The notes under the pieces: generated by a model
What the model was told of the DNA's origin: nothing
What the model saw: only the letters and a program-made list of their open reading frames with translations
The model's database searches: none
Part shown: positions 16,855 to 56,909 of the stretch, in pieces
How positions within the stretch are numbered: the first letter of the stretch is position 1
How the letters are laid out: the number at the start of each line of letters is the position of its first letter
Program-made: the position numbers and the translations under genes
DNA from: Gracilinanus agilis
Lineage: Eukaryota
Assembly (NCBI RefSeq): GCF_016433145.1
Contig: NC_058133.1
Location: 174,144,629-174,208,628 of the forward strand
DNA: 64,000 nucleotides
Direction of reading: 5' to 3'

Positions 16855-17050
16855 GGAGAGCTAGATAGCACAATGGATAGATAGCTAGATAGCACAGCAG
16901 GCCAGGAATCAAAAGCAGCTGGGTTCAAATCTAGCTTCAGACACTTCCTAGCCTTGTGACCCCAGACAAGTCACTTAACTCCAATTGCCTAGCCCTTGCC
17001 ACTCTTCTTAAAATTAATACTAAGACAGAAAGTAACAATTTAAAATAAAT
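16855..17050 (+). mobile_element. Marsupial tRNA-derived SINE with a short head duplication (ctagatagcac twice)
   Basis: gggttcaaatctagcttcagacacttcctagcc...gcctagcccttgccactcttc. Confidence 0.8.
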
Positions 17051-17099: not shown

Positions 17100-17284
17100 G
17101 CAAGAATATTTCCTCAGAATAAATGTAAAGATCTACACTTTGGTTTAGAAAATCAATTTTATACTCACAAGATATGTAACTAAGGTGTTATTTCTGCAAT
17201 AAGAGATGGGGGGGAATTAATGGACTGTTAAGTTCAGCATAGGTCAAGGTTATGGATGGGATGGTCAAAATGATGAAATTTTAG
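17100..17284 (+). mobile_element. L3/CR1 LINE, left part (host of the ERV insertion)
   Basis: atggactgttaagttcagcataggtcaag is colinear with the L3 3' consensus and resumes at 19705. Confidence 0.7.
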
Positions 17285-18586
17285 GAAGATGATTTTATTT
17301 TGGGGGTGTTAACTGTAGGTTGCCTGTATTGATTTTGGCTCCTACTAGTTTGGAGGGCAAAATTTTTCACCTCCTCGATTTCTTTCTCTCGCCTTATTTG
17401 TTTTAATTGCCTTTTAAAATCAGCTATCATTTCGTCTTTGTCTGAGTCAGTCTGTCTTGCGATTCTTGCTTCTTTCTGTTTTGAGTCATGGATGTAAGAA
17501 GCATGTTGCCTTACATCCTCCAGTGGCAGTGATTCCCACTGTGGACAATTCTGTCTAAAGTAGTTTTGTATTGGGATTGATGTTCCCTTTACAAATTTCC
17601 TACGTATGTGGTCTATGGTGTCCTGGGCATGTGTATCTCGTAGACCAAGTATTGTCTCAGCTGCCTCAATTACTTGATCTAGAAAACTTCTTCTTCTTCC
17701 CCCGTTTTAACTTTTCAAACTTTTGCCAAGAGTTTGGTCTTTTTGCGTGAATTCTCATTGCCTCAAGTAAGACCATTCTACCCTGAATCAAGTATCTAAG
17801 GTTTGCATGCTGTGTGAAATCTAAGTCTTGGTGAACTAGTGGCCATGCTGTCAAATTGGGGTTCGTCCTTGTTTCATTAAGGAATTTTTCCTCTTCTGAG
17901 GAAGAATAAAATTCCCCTAAAAGAAATTCCATGTCGTCTAAACTTGGATTAAATAATGTAAACACTCTCTTTAATTCCCTGATGCTCTTGAAAGGTTTTT
18001 CGAAATACTTGGGAAAGCATCTTTTTAGGACCTCCATATCACTTGGGGTGAATGCTTTGTATGTTTTCACATGCACTACCCCTTCACCAGGCTGCACTAC
18101 TGTTCTGTTTACTATTAGTAGGAGAGAGACTGTGGCATTTGTGGATGGTTGGGTTTTTGTGGTATTGCTTCCTAGATACTTTGATTACACAATCTCCAGT
18201 TGGAGAATTGTGTGCTTATCCAATTCCCTTCCTTCTCTTAGTTGTTTTAGTGCTTGGAACAGTAGCTTGATGTTTGCTACCAGTTCCTGAGAATTATCGT
18301 CTTTCTTGGTTGAGATTGTATTGTAATAGTTACACAGGTGAGAGCATACGTTCTTTGAGACTGTTAGGAATTGCCAAATAGACAGGGTTATGGCTATGGC
18401 AGTTGGGATAAAACAAATGCGCTCAGCCAGGGTTAAGGCACACCATTTATAATAGTCATAGAGGTCTAAAGCTTGTTGCACAAAATTGGGGACTGTCTTG
18501 AACCAAAAATCTATTACACCTTGCATGAAATACCATGACATGATGGATATGGTAGATAAGATGAATGTTATTCTAGCCAGTTTCAT
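17285..18586 (-). pseudogene. gag: Retroviral Gag (capsid p30-like) with one in-frame TAA (18185-18187), one frameshift (about 17685-17703) and a 3' truncation
   Basis: YKAFTPSDMEVLKRCFPKYFEKPFKSIRELKRVFTLFNPSLDDMEFLLGEFYSSSEEEKFL aligns by eye with MLV p30 (YWPFSSSDLYNWK..PSFSEDP..L..V..THQPTWDDCQQLL..L...EE). The major homology region reads KFEKLKRG then shifts to FLDQVIEAAETILG; the shifted frame stays open (RRKFVKG...YFRQNCPQWESLPLEDVRQHASYIHD...) to the junction. ORFs 18185..18889 and 17666..18097 are in the same frame. Confidence 0.9.
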
Positions 18587-19029
18587 TTTGGGTATGTCAG
18601 AAGATATAAGGTTGTTCGCTAACTTTACTCGACAATTAATGTAATGGATAAAAGAGGGGGTACTCTCCTTCCCTTGCTGAGTGATGGAGGGGTAAAAGGT
18701 GATTGAGGTAATAGGATAGGAATGGAAGGGAAGGCTAAGTTTAGGGAGGAATGGACAAGGTGGTATTTGGATGGTAAGGGTACAGGTGAGGTATTCAGGA
18801 GAGGCAGCTAACACACCCAGGCTAGAGACAGAGGATATTGGGGTAATAGGCTGAACCCTTCCAGGCAGGAAAGGTACTTTTACAGACACAAGGAACAGAG
18901 CCAGACAGAAGTGGTTTGAATCTGACTTGAGGGCTTTCTTGTCAGTTTCTTAAGTCCTCAAAGGAGGAACCACAAGGCTCCTCCTTGTCGGTGAAATTGA
19001 AGGGATTCAGGAGGAAGCATTGGGCAACT

Positions 19030-19704
19030 ACTTCCTCCCAAGATGAATGCCTCCAGTTTCCCTCAGGAAATAAAAGAGAATTATTCTTTCCCCTTCACCC
19101 TTGCCTAATTTCTTCAATACATAGATTCTCCAGAGGGTTTGATTAAGTAACCAAAGGTTTATTAATGTTTCAGGATTGGTCTGAAGGAGAGAGGGGTTCA
19201 GGATTTCTGACAACTGCTATGGAGAAACTCAAGATGGGGGAGAGTCACAGGAATGGGTTAGACTAAGAGAGAACCTGCTCTCTCGACCTGGGAAGATTTA
19301 GCTGCCTTTTAAGTAGAGGGTATACTAAAGGGATAGTTTGAATTCAAGGATGTCCTACTTGCCTATTGAGGAAAACTAAACCCACAAAGTCTTTTCACTA
19401 AAAACCCAAAAGCCACCCTGCCTCCCAGAGCCCTGGGAAAACAGGCAGGGAAAAACAGGGAAATAATATGGAGAAAGGTCAGGGAAAGGTCCAGAGAAAT
19501 TAGCTAGGTACAGATTGTCCAAAGACAAGGCACAGGCCAAAGCAAACCGAAAGCCAAAATAGAGCTCTGGTTGATCCTTCCACTCTGTTCAAGCATCAGG
19601 GACCAACTGCCCTCTCTCAGAATTCTAAGGCTTCTAATTGCCAGAAGTTTTCACTTGGCCCCCTACAAGAGCAAAAACCTCTCTCTTGCATCTTTTGCAT
19701 TACA
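19030..19704 (-). mobile_element. 5' LTR of the ERV (3' boundary uncertain, primer-binding site not recognised)
   Basis: Starts with TG at 19704; TATA-like TACTTAAAAG at about 19306-19315; AATAAA at 19158-19163; short TTTCCCTG repeats in the U3-like part. Confidence 0.65.
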
Positions 19705-20215
19705 TGGGGTGGTCAAAATGATGAAATTTTAGACTGAATTAATAGAAGACAGTGTCCAAAATACAGGATGCAGTAGTCCCATTTGCTTAGGCCACATGTT
19801 GAAGAGTTGTAGATAGTTTTGATTGCCATATAAAGCACAGCCATAGAAAGGCAACCTAGATGATGGTAAATGCCATTTGAGGATCATCTGAAGGAACTGG
19901 TGATGTTTAATTTGAAGAAGAGAAGACTTTAGAGGTATGTGATACCTAGCTTCGAATATTTGAAGCGCTATCTTTAGAACAGTTAAGATTTGTTTTACCT
20001 GGTTCCTGAGAGACAAATGAGTAGAAGTTACAGAGAAGCAACTTTAATTCAAAATGAGAAAAAACTTTCTAACACTTAAGATTTCCTGACCAAAATCCAG
20101 AAGAGGATGTCTTGAGAGTAGGGAGTTCTGTGTTCCTGGAGCTCTTTAGGCAGAGCTGGAGGATCATTTGTTAGAAGCATTGCAGGGGATGAATACTTTA
20201 GATAGTTTGATGAAA
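19705..20215 (+). mobile_element. L3/CR1 LINE, right part
   Basis: aatagaagacagtgtcc...gaggatcatctgaaggaactggtgatgtttaatttgaagaagagaagac...gaaaaaactttctaac...ctctttaggcagagctggaggatcatttg. Confidence 0.85.
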
Positions 20216-21070: not shown

Positions 21071-22369
21071 AACACAACACTTCTCCACCAGGCTTCCCCC
21101 TCACACCTCTGTTCCCACCTTAAATGAAATAATTTTTAATTACTGCTCAAGCCAAATGCTAAGATGATTTTGTTTTCTTTTCCCATTAGAATTAGTCCTG
21201 AAAGTTTAGGATGAATGTTCTTTTTCTTAAGGGGAAGAAATCAGAACAGTGGGAAATTCTGGATAAATCCCTGGTTAGTCTTAACCTTCTCCTTCTCCTC
21301 CTGTGTGCTTACTTGGCACTCTTTGTCTTTGTGATGTCAGAGTAATATGTTATTGAGTTTGATTTTTTTTCTTTGCTGTTTTTTTTTAACTGGGAGTCTC
21401 TTCAGTGACCAGTCTAAACTAGTAATGCAAGATACAAAATGATGTTTCCTATATCAGTTGGGAATTTCATGGAATTTATTCTCATTTGACAGTCTTTCCA
21501 GATGGATCTGTGTGCCTGCCTTCCCAGGGCCAGTTATACTCCCTGAAAATTTGTTTTTTAGCCTTGATACCCTTAAAAGTAATTCCCCTGCTCCAATCTG
21601 CATCCAGGTCACTGTCCGTCTTGTGAGACTGAGTTAAATGAAAGTGGAGTCAACTTAAGTGCCAATTAGCAAGAGGGTTACCATTTCCTTATTTTGGTGT
21701 TTATCTGGAAAGACTGTTAAAGGGATGAGGGTGAGAACATTTCTTGTGAATGGGCCTGAGGGTTCAAATGTATTGGTTCAGTTTCTCAGGCTTTGGCATC
21801 TCCTAATCCCTAAGGGCAAGAGGAGAGGATGAGAGGTAAGGAAGGAGAAGAATCCAGGATCTGACCCTGCGCTTTTACAGGTTTCATTGTAAAAACTGAG
21901 AGGGTTTGGACATTTTGTGACTAATGGGTTTTGCAGAAGTGATTTTCCTATTGTAAGTGGCCCTCGGTAATATTCTTTTTGCAGCATTCAGCTGTCCACC
22001 ACCTACAAATGAATGTTAACTTCCATTCAGTCCAATTTGATAAACCTTCATAAGCTCCTGTTATTTATTTGTTTGTGCTAAATGTCAAAAAGGATGAAAC
22101 CAAAGCTGAAATGACACTTGCTCTCAGGGAGCTTCTAGTTAATTTGCCTCATTCAGCTGGTTAAATATTTTTAGAACCCTCCCTTTTACACTTCACTGGA
22201 AACTGACAGAAAGTAGTTTGTTGGTGTGGAAAGAGCCTAGATATGAGCCTCAGGTGACCTGTATGCTAGTCCTGGCCCTGGCACTAATTCCCTAGGTGAA
22301 TTTGGGCAAATCATTAAGCCTTTCTGAGCCTCCCTCTCTTTTTATATGTCAGTTTCCTCTCCTGTAAAA

Positions 22370-23975: not shown

Positions 23976-26179
23976 TATTATTAACAAGGATTTAATTTCA
24001 TTCCAAACATCTTGTGTCAAAGAGGCACCACTCTGCATAAGTGCAGTGAAATATGAGATTCTTGAGTCTTTAGTAGATGCCGAGCTGGAGACCCCAGTTA
24101 TTCCTACCCCCTTTCCCAACAGCCGCAGCCATGAAACTTTCATGACCCTTTCACCTTTAAACTTTGTTTGAACTTGGAAAGAAGACTTGTGAATTGGAAA
24201 GGGGGGTAGTATGGGGTGTGTGGGGAGGAGATGTGGAGGCTGGGGGGAAAAGGACTGATTATATGTTACCGTCACAGTAATACTAGGAAGATAATCCCCC
24301 TCTTGTGTATGGGTTTCTGCTACTGCAAACTAGAGGGTAATAAGCTCACATGACAGGCCCAGAGGCTAATACTGGCCTGTGCTTTTTTGGTACATATTTA
24401 AACAAAGGCTGATTATCCAAACAAGAATTGGGACTGCTGCAACCGGACCAGTTAAATTATAGTTAGTAAAACTTGGCGCCTTATGAGCCTGGAATGTTAC
24501 AATTACAGCTGGATCCTCATTTGTCAGGCCGCCTCACTAAACAAGAAAACCAGAGATTTTTTTATCCCTCCCCTCCGCCCCCCACCTCCCTGGATTCTGC
24601 TTAACTCCTTGGTGCAAAGATGAAAGTGCCAAATATCACAGCAGGGACTCAGGGAAAGCCTCTACCTTGCTAGAGCCTTCCAGAGCTGAGTTTGCTCAGT
24701 TGATTTTATAGAGTGCCTTTGAGGGAAGTGGGTGGAGGAGATGGGCTTGACCTATGTATGGTCTCTGGCTTTCATTTGTGTTGGGTGGGTGTCCAGTGTT
24801 CTGGACCATACACTGAGCTCCTTTTTTGGATGTTGTCCCTGAACAGAAATTGAAGTCATTAGTGCCCTCCTGCTTCCTTTCTGGGTCTGAAAAATTTTAA
24901 TGGAGAAAGAAAATTCCTTCTCCTAGACAGGTTCTCTGACTTAGACTCTTTAGCCTGTGGTTTTTGTTTTCCATGAATACCCTCACTTTTGACACCAAAG
25001 AGTCTTTGTGACTACTGGAATATAGTTCTACTTCCCCAGATTCTTAAATTTCTTCTTCTACTTAAAAATTTTTATTAACAGTTTTTAACTTTTTTAGAAA
25101 AAAAATCTGCCATTTTTTCTTCTTTTAAAGTTGCCTTCCTTGTGATTGAGGTCCATGGAATGGGTTAGGATTCATCTGATAATGAACTAGTTGAACTCCA
25201 GAAGACCATCCCAGACCAAGAATTAAACGGATGATGTAAATGATAATGATAATTACAATATTGATAACTGCTGAATTGCTTCGTTCAGATGATCTGAAAC
25301 AAACACACTTTGTTTGTAATGTTCGTTCGTTCGTTTGTTTGTTTGTAATGAAGCACAGCTTCATTAGCTTCTGTGATCGTTGTTTAGTCTCTGAGCTCAT
25401 CCCCAAATGTAGGATTCAAAGGGGATCTATAAGCAAGACGATTTCCCCAGAGTTTGACATACAGACTATGGCCTGATAATAAGACCCTGTTCTTTGGCAG
25501 TGAATTTTTCAGGGGCATAGAGAAGATGTAGGAGATAAGGTCACTTGTGAATGCTACTGTCCCTTTCCCAAAACCCATTTACAATTGGCCTATCTCATTC
25601 TGCCTCTCAGTTTTCCACAAGTTGTCCTCACTCTGTGCCTACCCAGAGCTGACCCTGCCAAGGGTTTGTTTTCCTTCCTTCCCTCTTTCTTAATATGCTC
25701 TGTTATTGCAATCCAGGCTTGTGGCTACTGGGAGGGGTGATTGGCAGGGTCAGTCAGAAATTAAGCTCTAAAATGCATCTTCCAGAGGTGGTGGGTAGAG
25801 ATTAGATTGGAGACCTGCTTCCTCTCTCAATTTTCAAGCCAGCTTTGACTATTACTTCATAGAAGAAGAAAAAAAATACTGAAAAGAGCTTGACAAAGAG
25901 TCCCCCTAATAAATAAGATGTCTCAATAACTGGGTCCCTGATAGATTTGTTTCCATTATTAACTTCCATTTCTATCAAAACTAGTGATTTTAAATTTTAA
26001 TTCCTCAGTTCATTTTTTTATATGTTGAGTTAGGCGTGTTGCAGTGTAGGGTAATGAATAGTTTCTTCTTAGAGGAAGATGAGATTCCAATAAGCATTTC
26101 AATGAGATGATAAGTTTTTGGAACCTCAAAACAAGCTAGAAAAATCGACATGATACTAATACCCAATTCACAAGATATT

Positions 26180-33710: not shown

Positions 33711-35349
33711 AATATCTTTCTAGTGCCACTGAATGTGAAATAAAGTACCTCCCAGCAAGAGACTTTTAGCAAAAACTAGACCCAGATCCAGGTGTTCCCA
33801 AGTTCTAAATCTGATTAAGTCACAGTGGGCAAGATGACAATCGTCAAACCATTAACTTGAAAATTTTATATATTTATTTCCCTGTTAACCACAAGTGAGG
33901 TTTTTTTCCCCCGTAACAATATAAATGAATTAATGAAAAAGTATGTATACAGTGCTCACTGTGTGCCAGGCACTGCACTTTATACAAGTACAGGGGTGAT
34001 ACAATTCTTCGTTCATTGGGGAGTTACAGGGATGATAAGTTGACATGCCATTGCCACAAACAATAGCATTGTTGATTTGATTACTGTGCCCCAAGTAAAA
34101 TGTGGAAGGACAAATCAGGCATATGCTGGTGGCAATTCTAATGGCAAGATGGCCAAGGTGGAAGACTGGATGGAAGATAAAGCATGATTTGGACCTAGCT
34201 AGATAGATATCAAGGCCTTCGTGAGTTTGCACTTATCAATAGAAACAATTCAAAGCCATTGGCAGGGGTTCTAAATCTTAAAAGATTAATATGCCCAGGA
34301 CTTTGATTTCTGGAGATCTGATCCAGAGGGTGCTGTTGCATGTTAAAGGATGCAGGGCAAAATGGCCAGGGAAGATGACTGGATGGGATGTGGAGCCCAG
34401 TCAGAAAGACTAGTGAGTAATAGATATTTACTAGACTTTTAATTCCATTCCATTCTTCAGGGACAAGAGCTGTTTGCATTTTTCCATGTATCATAGGTAA
34501 CCTATTAGTCTCCATAGTCTCCTAAGATACATCACTGAGATTTTTGCAGAGTAGGGAAACTCCATTAAGTCATTGCTTGCCCTAGACAAAATTGTGAAGT
34601 AGGTGTCTTACAGTGTCTTCCTGCTCCTTTCCATCTCTATTCTTTCACTTCGTGGTTCTTTGTCTCCTACCCAGGGTCTTAAAACAAAATCAAACAAGAA
34701 TCTCATAACAAATACTTAAAATATAAAGCATTTACTCATCAAATCTATTATACTTTCTGAGGAAATGAAGACTGTTGTGTACTAAATCCCGTGAAGTATT
34801 AGTTGAAAACAGCCTTAAAAGTGTTATCTCTTCTGAGGATGTGTTATCTTTCCCAAGACTCTCTGGGTCTCATTTTCTACATTTGTAAACTGACACACTT
34901 TAAACTTTGTATTTCCTATATGTAACAAGTTTAGTTCTCGCTCTCTCACACACACACACAAAAACACACACATGCACACATGCATGTATGCATGCACAAA
35001 CACAGAGCCGGAAATAAGCATATTTGGGAGAAGACTGCTAGAGACTTTGGGGAAAAAAGTTATCTCTAATTATTTTAAAATCATAATACTATATGAATTT
35101 CAAGTTGCTAACATACTTCATAGTTGTAGGATAAAAATTTGGGGGTTTATTTCAGTATTTTCAGTAGCTCTGATACAAAAGCATAAGGCACTTTCTGCTT
35201 CCTGGCACAGGGATATCTTGGTAGAGTTCAGAGCCCTAGTCTTTATGAGATCATTAATACAATATAATAAAGTATGTGAAATATCGTTATGCAAGAGCAA
35301 CTTAGATCAAATGAGGGTTTTTATTTTAATTGTTATAACTTAATGCTAC

Positions 35350-35570: not shown

Positions 35571-38500
35571 AACTTAATGCTATCCACAGTGCCATCCTTA
35601 TCACCAGCCTCATTTGATCCATATTATTTAAACACAGTTTTGGATATTTTAAGGGAGCAGTGATCCTGCATTAATAATTTCAGGTCTCAATGTTAATACT
35701 TCCAGATGCCAAGTAATAAACAGAGTTATTTTTGGCAACGTTTAAATTTGTTTGATTTCTAGTGGGTATTTTATCACTATAAAACTGCTTATTTGGAATA
35801 CATAAAAATCACTTCAAACAATCTGGCATCAGTTGAACTTGATTTCTGGTTTCAAATTGTGTACCCCCAAAGGCTCACTGAAGATCTCTTGACATTCATA
35901 ATCTTTAAGTGATATATGCTAAGCCACTGCCTGAAGAGGTATGAGACGTGACCTAGTTTTGTTGGCTTAACTAATTAGTGCTTTTTTCATTACCACCAAA
36001 ACAAAAGTATAGGCACTTTCTGCTGCCTGGCACAGATGCCATCATAGTTGTAGGGATATATTGATAGAGTTCAGAGCCCTAGTCTTTATGAGATCATAGA
36101 TTATTAGTGATAGAAATTACTCCATTTATGCAGAAGTCGTATAAATCCTTGAGAGATAAAGTAGCCAACATCCTATATCTACTTAATGGTAGAGTTGAGA
36201 CCAGAATCCAGGTTTCTTGTTTCCAAATTCAGTATTCTTTCAACCTCATCCTGCTGCCTCAAGTCCTTTGCTTCATATCAGGAAGAAGTTACCTATCTAT
36301 TTATAATCCAGATCATGCTTTCATTTCAGTATAAATATCAACCATTCCACCATGAACTCTATTTTAAAATGCACCCAACTGTCTTAGACTTTGTTTTGTG
36401 GACTGACCTAATTGACAGGTAATCAGAAAGCTCGATTTGTGCCTGAAGTTAGCCATTCATTCCATGGCCCATTTTGTTTAATTTGTTTTCTCATATGGTT
36501 TCTGGTGGGAAAAAAATACATTGCTTTGGTACTGAAATTAACTTGATTGAAATGCCTTAGACTTTGTCATTTTCCAGTGGCTCAAGAGGTTATTTCCCAA
36601 GTGTTTAATTTTTTAAGTACAGTATATTTTAATTTAACTGCTACTTTCTGACATTCATCATTCCATGAAAAATGAGCCCAGCTGAATATGTGGAGAACTG
36701 GTTTGTCTTTGTGCACCAATCTCCAGGCATTACAGCAAAAGTTAGCTTCTAAAATAGTACACAGATTTGATAAAGATGAGGTTTGTAGACAGTGGCTTAC
36801 TGGCAAATGTTTTACAATTGGCCTTATGGGGTGGAATATACAAAACATTTTAAAGTTTAATTTTCATTACTAATATTTTCTCCATTACTTTCTCAAGGCT
36901 AGACAATCAACAAAACAATAAGTCAAAGCCTGATTTGTAGCATTTGCTATTTCCAAGGTGTAAATACTCACACTGAAAATTTAATATATGGCAGTACTGA
37001 GTAGTTCAAGCTGACTCCAGTATCCCGGATCGTAGTTTACCCTTCTGCCATTCATCGATTTGCTAAGTAGAATTTTCAGATTTTCTCTTTCTCTTACAGA
37101 CTGCTCTATAATCTTTCTGTCTTGCTGGAGGAAACACTTAAAGAGTAAATGTAACCTACAGGAACTGTGCAGTCATAATTAATAAATGGAGAAATCACTT
37201 CTCGTGCAGATATTGTTTGGAATAGTTGTCTTTAAAGGTCTTTGAGTCAGGAATATCAGCCATGAGAAAAAAGGTTGGTGTTGGACTTTTAGAGTTTTGT
37301 TTAACATGTTACAGTTTACGCTTATGAGATAAAGAGTGGTCATGAACTAGAATGTTCTTTGTCCTTTCCATTATCCTTGACTCCCATGAAACTCCCCAGG
37401 GTAATCACTGGTGATGACCAATACTACCTACCTCTGAATGCAAAGCTGACCACATACCAATTACTTTCTTGCATGACCACAACTGTTCTTGACTAGAGCA
37501 GATGTTTCTCCTTTGGGGCCTAGCCAGAAAACGTTATTAAGCAATTCAACATCAAGAACTCCAGGCTCTACCTGATGAGCAATGTATTACCTTAGATATG
37601 TTGCACAGTAAGGCCAGTCTTCTCATATCCTCCAACCACTATGTGGTATCTTCTCCAAAGAGTTCATATTTTAAGCCACAGTTGCTATGAACAGAAGCAT
37701 ACTTGCCCCAAGTTCATTATACACCTACTTGCTTTTCCCAATGAAAATGGCAGTCAAAGATTGACCATGCTTTGTTCCCTGTGCAATTTGCTACTTATAT
37801 ATTTCAAGAATTAAGAAGAATGTCATTTTGTAATGACCCCTTTTCTATCAGGTGATGGTTAGCATAGAAGAAAACTACTAAACTTTATGAGATTTAATTA
37901 GGTCATTGAATTTTTCTGGACCTTTTTGGTCCAGAAATGTTAAGTTGGGATTCTCTTCTGAATTTGCTTTCTCTTCTGAGGATAAGTTGAATCCTTTCCC
38001 CTAGAAAGGCTACAGAGGTCTTTATCCCAATGGCTATAATCTTGACCTCAATCAAAAATATATTAATTTTTAGGATGATTGAGAGGCAGTATGGTGTGAT
38101 AAAAAAGAACATTGTGGATTTCACATCAGGAAAGGCAAGCTTTATCTTATACTTCCCATATTTGCTAGCTGTGGGACCATGGGCATTTAATCTCTATAAG
38201 TCTTAGTTTCCTCATTTGTAAAATAAAAATAATATACCTGTAGTTCCTTCCAGTTATGGTGGTTGCGAGGCTCCAAAGAGATAATGTGATTAATGCACTT
38301 CACAAACATTACAATGTTATGCAAATTCAGCTGTTGTTATTATGTAACACATCCCACTCAACTCTGGAATCACATGTTACTTGGGCTCTGTATATAATAT
38401 TTTGGATAATCATTCCATTATGCCTCTACCCCCCTCCCCATCCCAGAACACCAAAGGAACCTCTCCAGAATCTCAGGTTTTAGCAATCCAGTGGCTACTC

Positions 38501-48218: not shown

Positions 48219-48350
48219 NNNNNNNNNNNNNNNNNNNNNNNNNNNNNNNNNNNNNNNNNNNNNNNNNNNNNNNNNNNNNNNNNNNNNNNNNNNNNNNNNN
48301 NNNNNNNNNNNNNNNNNNNNNNNNNNNNNNNNNNNNNNNNNNNNNNNNNN
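48219..48350. other. Assembly gap (132 N)
   Basis: Run of N. Confidence 1.
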
Positions 48351-56771: not shown

Positions 56772-56909
56772 NNNNNNNNNNNNNNNNNNNNNNNNNNNNN
56801 NNNNNNNNNNNNNNNNNNNNNNNNNNNNNNNNNNNNNNNNNNNNNNNNNNNNNNNNNNNNNNNNNNNNNNNNNNNNNNNNNNNNNNNNNNNNNNNNNNNN
56901 NNNNNNNNN
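56772..56909. other. Assembly gap (138 N)
   Basis: Run of N. Confidence 1.

Follow-up and report, generated by a model that had tools for sequence, protein, structure and literature searches.

A 3'-truncated class I endogenous retrovirus between 28-nucleotide host duplications in the marsupial Gracilinanus agilis, a probable fossil of one-ended integration

The window, a 64,000-nucleotide stretch of the Gracilinanus agilis genome (contig NC_058133.1, positions 174,144,629 to 174,208,628, forward strand), contains a ~2.4-kb minus-strand piece of an endogenous retrovirus (ERV) lying inside an old L3/CR1 LINE. In viral orientation, the insert is composed of a putative complete 5' LTR, a short leader and a damaged gag, and is bracketed by a direct repeat (Table 1). 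A SINE copy with a short tandem repeat inside its 5' end (16856–17040) sits just upstream of the host L3; we take the SINEs of the window to resemble opossum SINE-1.

Table 1. Features of the ERV insert and its host flanks; positions are counted from the first base of the window.
Feature	Position	Strand	Remarks
Host L3/CR1 LINE, segment preceding the insertion	17205..17256	+	By-eye match to L3 consensus; left limit approximate
Left copy of the host duplication	17257..17284	+	Base 17256 extends it to 29 nt; adjoins the broken end of gag
3' junction zone, viral or repair filler	17285..17301	-	AATAAA at 17299-17294
Class I (gamma-like) gag, ATG through capsid	17299..18586	-	Stop at 18187-18185; frameshift near 17700
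53-nt leader after CA-TT, unusually short	18587..18639	-	No TGG-starting primer-binding site recognised
Inferred complete 5' LTR, ~1065 bp, TG...CA, 7-nt terminal inverted repeat	18640..19704	-	Inverted-repeat test
Stable stem-loop in the inferred U5	18990..19062	-	-31.2 kcal/mol, z -2.9; by-eye choice of segment
Right copy of the host duplication	19705..19732	+	Abuts the LTR terminal CA (plus strand 19703-19704); TTTT/AG at 19727-19732
Host L3/CR1 LINE, 3' region after the insertion	19733..20150	+	By-eye match to L3 consensus; right limit approximate

The initial annotation had placed two 29-mers differing at one position at 17256–17284 and 19704–19732, exactly bracketing the ERV, and direct sequence comparison confirms them. 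The copies are identical at 28 of 29 positions, the sole mismatch being A at 17261 against G at 19709, and they enclose 2,419 nt. Base 19704 is also the T of the LTR's TG, which refines the annotated length of ~28–29 nt to a host duplication of 28 nt plus one base shared with the LTR (29 nt if this base is counted). The longest repeat with at most one mismatch in each of 20 block-shuffled windows spans only 16–19 nt, so the 29-nt repeat is not a product of chance. The real window holds 16 repeats of at least 24 nt with at most one mismatch, including the ERV-flanking pair; the other 15 presumably resemble interspersed-repeat motifs or belong to a single host duplication, unrelated to the ERV, at 35.2/36.0 kb. 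This local duplication consists of two highly similar copies of ~70–90 nt (35175–35254 and 36000–36097), 825–843 bp apart with a SINE between them, and its second copy carries an 18-nt insert resembling sequence at ~35120.

Comparison with the L3 consensus, made by eye against the accessible part of supplement file 2 of PMC4316615, agrees with the earlier statement that the host L3 is colinear across the site. Two anchors flanking the insertion are 63 nt apart in the consensus; in the host they are 60 nt apart when one copy of the repeat is counted, and would be 89 nt apart with two. The anchor spacing makes the duplicated segment single in the consensus, so that the duplication most probably arose at insertion or later. 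A CR1 protein search for colinearity matched none of its 10 candidates. At 28–29 nt, the duplication exceeds the 4–6 bp of a canonical integrase-made provirus; normal duplications measure 5–6 nt in kangaroo KERV-1 and 5 nt in a canid gammaretrovirus, according to the portions available of PMC5711953 and PMC6407205. Among 10 SINE copies in the window, five have a clean duplication, each of 11–16 nt, and a script detected none of at least 20 nt in the 10 copies; the other five were ambiguous, one of them running into an N gap.

An assembly artefact, in which a filled allele was joined chimerically to an empty one, is a further alternative. The assembly is a draft, with three N gaps in the window (48219–48350, 56772–56909 and 57865; 271 bases in all), but these gaps are more than 28 kb distant. 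A duplicate made by assembly should moreover be identical, whereas a one-base difference separates these copies, and the overlap between gag and host is too short for a misjoin, leaving an artefact scarcely credible.

The 5' end, which had been described as beginning at a normal-looking LTR TG, starts with TGTAATG at 19704. The only 7-nt inverted partner of this motif in the element lies at 18646–18640, ends in CA followed by TT, and is positioned 53 nt before the gag ATG. In dinucleotide shuffles, a 7-nt partner occurs at a frequency of 0.033 when any position upstream of the ATG is allowed; the frequency falls to 0.016 within the last 500 nt and to 0.006 within the last 200 nt. Allowing gaps, the test gives 0.028. 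The minus-strand LTR delimited in this way contains a TATA-like TTAAAA at 19312 and an AATAAA at 19163. Read from these two motifs, the LTR would be divided into a U3 of ~420 bp, an R of ~140 bp and a long U5. U3 appears to be present in the insert, with ~390 nt lying upstream of the TATA-like box. HERV-W LTR17 likewise has a long U5, from 327 to 780, in the sections of PMC5016936 used here. A complete LTR with U3 suggests that the insert begins at the viral DNA end and not at the RNA cap site or transcript start. The LTR limits are suggested by a motif of p ~0.01–0.03 rather than by comparison of paralogues, and the lack of a recognisable TGG-starting primer-binding site after the proposed LTR end (18587–18639) counts against them. 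An LTR end near 19055, where a TGG is found, was dropped, as it has no preceding CA and the inverted partner is located at 18646–18640 instead.

The gag reading frame extends from its ATG through the capsid region. Its Gag_p30 match is weak (E=6.6e-5, 23 bits, under the Pfam cut-off of 27.4), and a full HMMER search with gag returned 13 matches, the best at 36–40% identity and the top two being Monodelphis domestica proteins. The Monodelphis protein XP_007499152, a gag of 520 residues that contains p30 and, at 427–442, a CCHC knuckle, aligns to the insert gag with 34–41% identity (E=1e-70). This alignment stops at window position 17299, corresponding to residue 427, the start of the knuckle. 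Because the match ends where this knuckle begins, the insert breaks inside gag just before the nucleocapsid zinc knuckle, in accordance with the 3' truncation inside gag noted in the initial annotation. XP_056674145, also from Monodelphis, has 29–37% identity; both proteins combine a Gag_p30 capsid with a hydrophobic N-terminal region, as the insert gag does, and both are too distant for the same ERV family. The 13 HMMER matches are likewise too distant for reading viral sequence across the junction, and word-index searches yielded no close gag relatives among 545 and 146 candidates. A gag with Gag_p30 capsid homology behind an LTR supports a class I (gamma-like) assignment, which, with pol absent, is a classification by gag.

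The remainder of a provirus is missing from the window, which contains no second LTR copy and no further copies of the LTR, gag or local L3 part. No reverse transcriptase, integrase or env families were detected in the 74 scanned of 134 ORFs of at least 72 aa, and Rfam returned no matches at gathering scores. The canonical arrangement of two LTRs around gag-pol-env is therefore not the one found here. The element is dead: it is without pol, env and 3' LTR, its gag is broken, and it has no sign of function.

Two testable features define a one-ended aberrant integrant, and the insert has both. One end appears to lie precisely at the LTR terminus TG/CA (shuffle frequency 0.006–0.033), and the other is truncated and accompanied by a duplication of more than 6 bp of a host segment that was previously single, as judged by eye from the L3 consensus. 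The insert is neither a canonical provirus nor a HERV-W-type processed copy. We interpret it as a fossil class I ERV whose germline integration by integrase was one-ended and was completed by host repair, and assign this reading a probability of about 0.6; this figure, like the weighting of every other explanation, is a judgement and was not computed.

The observations comprise the duplication, the one copy of its sequence in the L3 consensus, the TG start and its inverted partner, and the position of the break; from them we infer how the events followed one another and which enzymes acted. The anatomy suggests that integrase would first have joined the processed U3 end (CA, plus-strand 19703–19704) to one host strand in the old L3. 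The other viral end, defective, incompletely made or trimmed, would never have been joined, and all sequence from the nucleocapsid knuckle onward would have been lost. Host repair synthesis would then have joined the trimmed end 28 nt 5' of the integrase joint, by way of microhomology over a few bases or of a short filler copied from a template, and would have copied the 28 nt that now flank the insert.

Support for one-ended integration comes from both ends of the insert. At the 5' end, the edge coincides with the TG...CA inverted-repeat pair and U3 appears present. The 3' junction is without poly(A), its longest A run being 4 nt and lying within the duplication or gag, and it offers two candidate filler sources (~0.1–1%), both identified post hoc. 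The last 17 bases resemble a slipped copy of the duplication start, a resemblance reached by 23 of 2378 element 17-mers and by 1 of 160 when GC-matched. Of the 16 bases at 17286–17301, 15 are identical to host 21161–21176, which lies 1.4 kb past the insert; such a 16-mer match is found within 13–24 kb for 3 of 2403 element 16-mers and in the whole window for 22 of 2403. The host segment 21161–21176 is a possible template of repair filler, and the last 16–17 bases may not be viral; if they are filler, the AATAAA within them is a by-product. A zinc-knuckle dipeptide resemblance in another frame at the junction was set aside as uninformative, since 112 of 1264 random 21-nt windows show it as well. 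The short SINE duplications of the window (11–16 nt) also favour one-ended integration, as do the cultured-cell integrants that share this anatomy and the existence of HERV-K germline precedents.

The same reading is weakened by the missing TGG primer-binding site, by the usually much greater length of experimental duplications (hundreds to thousands of bp) and by the loss of most of the viral genome, which goes beyond the losses quantified in the accessible text of PMC5041404. It also leaves to chance two motifs at the aberrant end. The plus-strand end of the repeat, TTTT/AG, is an L1-like nick motif with a chance of ~0.9–1.7% over three offsets; on the element strand it forms the CT/AAAA site to which the initial annotation had drawn attention, present as described, though 2 nt inside the repeat edge. 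In addition, the junction AATAAA ends 11 nt before the AAAA (chance 2.4%).

Both motifs would be accounted for by an ordinary L1 retrocopy of ERV RNA that was prematurely polyadenylated or internally primed in gag, and HERV-W offers a precedent for L1 mobilising ERV RNAs in the part of PMC5016936 at hand. The HERV-W processed pseudogenes described there share with the insert an ERV origin, a longer-than-integrase duplication and possibly a TT/AAAA-like insertion site. Such copies, however, begin at R without a 5' U3 and finish with U3-R and poly(A); their duplications measure 5–15 bp. The insert appears to retain a complete U3 and does not begin at R, as far as the proposed U3/R limit holds; it has no poly(A) tail left, and its duplication measures 26–29 nt. 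The 2 extra shared bases would be a 1-in-16 coincidence if priming had occurred on poly(A), and the template would have to be a read-through RNA whose truncation fell exactly on the first base of the LTR. We consider this origin very improbable.

A hybrid route would retain the L1 nick at TTTT/AG and replace the RNA template by unfinished plus-strand retroviral cDNA starting at U3. The T-rich end would prime an A-rich patch of a cDNA stalled or internally primed in gag, and ORF2p would copy to its 5' end. This would explain why the insert starts exactly at U3 and why a nick-like site is present with a 2-nt shift. According to the excerpted text of PMC10830420, DNA serves ORF2p as a template about as well as RNA does, and the available portion of PMC4476161 describes L1 internal priming that gives 3'-truncated, tail-less copies with extra shared bases counted in the duplication. 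The tail-less snRNA retropseudogenes of the latter source resemble the insert in that their 5' end is complete, their 3' side is cut short at a purine-rich patch, they lack poly(A) and the edge of their duplication is shifted by shared bases, but they derive from short RNA templates and their 5' end is the transcript start, whereas the insert is 2.4 kb long and its 5' end matches the viral DNA end. No paper title retrieved describes ORF2p capturing retroviral cDNA, a duplication of 26–28 nt is long against the 11–16 nt of SINEs in the window, and TTTT/R sites are common enough for a chance match of 1–2%. The hybrid route is quite improbable, and the two L1 routes taken together are still unlikely. 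Of the two origins offered in the initial annotation, L1 mobilisation and one-ended integration, the second is favoured, while a plain L1 retrocopy is disfavoured because the 5' edge of the insert apparently coincides with the beginning of U3.

That annotation omitted the possibility that a normal provirus later underwent gap repair or deletion, as well as the published HERV-K precedents. A normal provirus with a 4–6 bp duplication could have been rearranged after insertion, while heterozygous: its distal end, resected into the flank, would have copied the empty allele slightly past the insertion and rejoined gag by microhomology. Aborted gap repair of this kind is known from Drosophila P-element work. 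The end structure would be the same, including the intact U3 end and the filler-like junction bases, and the indistinguishable product of such one-allele repair further weakens the case for one-ended integration. This route nevertheless requires a second rare event, with a copy tract that by coincidence ends no more than 28 nt from the insertion point. In a variant of this route, a deletion would have spanned a local duplication that already existed, along the lines of the pseudo-TSD models discussed for HERV-K 6p25.2 in the accessible part of PMC5488345; the L3 consensus has one copy only, so that a further event would be needed. We regard later rearrangement as unlikely, though conceivable.

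One-ended integration, the preferred reading, has parallels in cultured cells and in primate germlines. In ASLV and HIV-1 one-ended integrations from the Hughes laboratory, as reported in the available sections of PMC5041404, one end is normal and the other often truncated, host DNA is mostly duplicated at the aberrant end, and short homology or appended sequence is present there. The insert shares the normal integrase junction, the truncated end, the aberrant-end duplication and possibly the microhomology or appended sequence; in contrast to these integrants, it is a natural germline fossil with a duplication shorter than their usual hundreds to thousands of bp. For HML-2, the accessible text of PMC5488345 lists 8 of 451 inferred duplications as longer than 10 bp (13–450 bp), including the truncated 6p25.2 provirus with 111 bp. 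The 3'-truncated 21q21.1 HERV-K has a 450 bp duplication and Pan2Ap one of 15–18 bp; the portion of PMC4422153 consulted ascribes both to inefficient integration and ties them to experimental aberrant integrants. These truncated HERV-K(HML-2) proviruses, germline and fixed or polymorphic, thus display the same intact 5' LTR, lost 3' end and duplication far above 4–6 bp, and aberrant integration has already been proposed for them in these sources. The insert differs in being a class I marsupial ERV, whereas HERV-K is betaretrovirus-like and primate, and in its duplication of only 28 nt, its truncation into gag and the L1-like nick motif at its aberrant end.

The insert is therefore most likely a new marsupial example of an already known rare integration accident. 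Searches of an open-access library, a scope with most subscription journals outside it, retrieved no report of such aberrant integration in marsupials. As a single locus it is of small importance, one further fossil of failed retroviral integration, in a marsupial; rules such as 'ERV = 4–6 bp duplication' nevertheless overlook real insertions. If L1 capture of cDNA were general, L1 would have made some of the long-duplication truncated ERVs for which integrase failure is now held responsible, and TTTT/A sites at their broken ends would give them away.

Elsewhere in the window, a weak Pfam DUF3404 match on the minus strand (25128–25415; E=1.6e-4, below the cut-off) is probably due to chance. 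At the beginning of the window, the 5' part of an L1 with ORF1 pieces (Transposase_22, E=6e-12; Tnp_22_dsRBD, E=5e-7) occupies 260–1322 on the minus strand and continues to ~2800, the element running off the window start.
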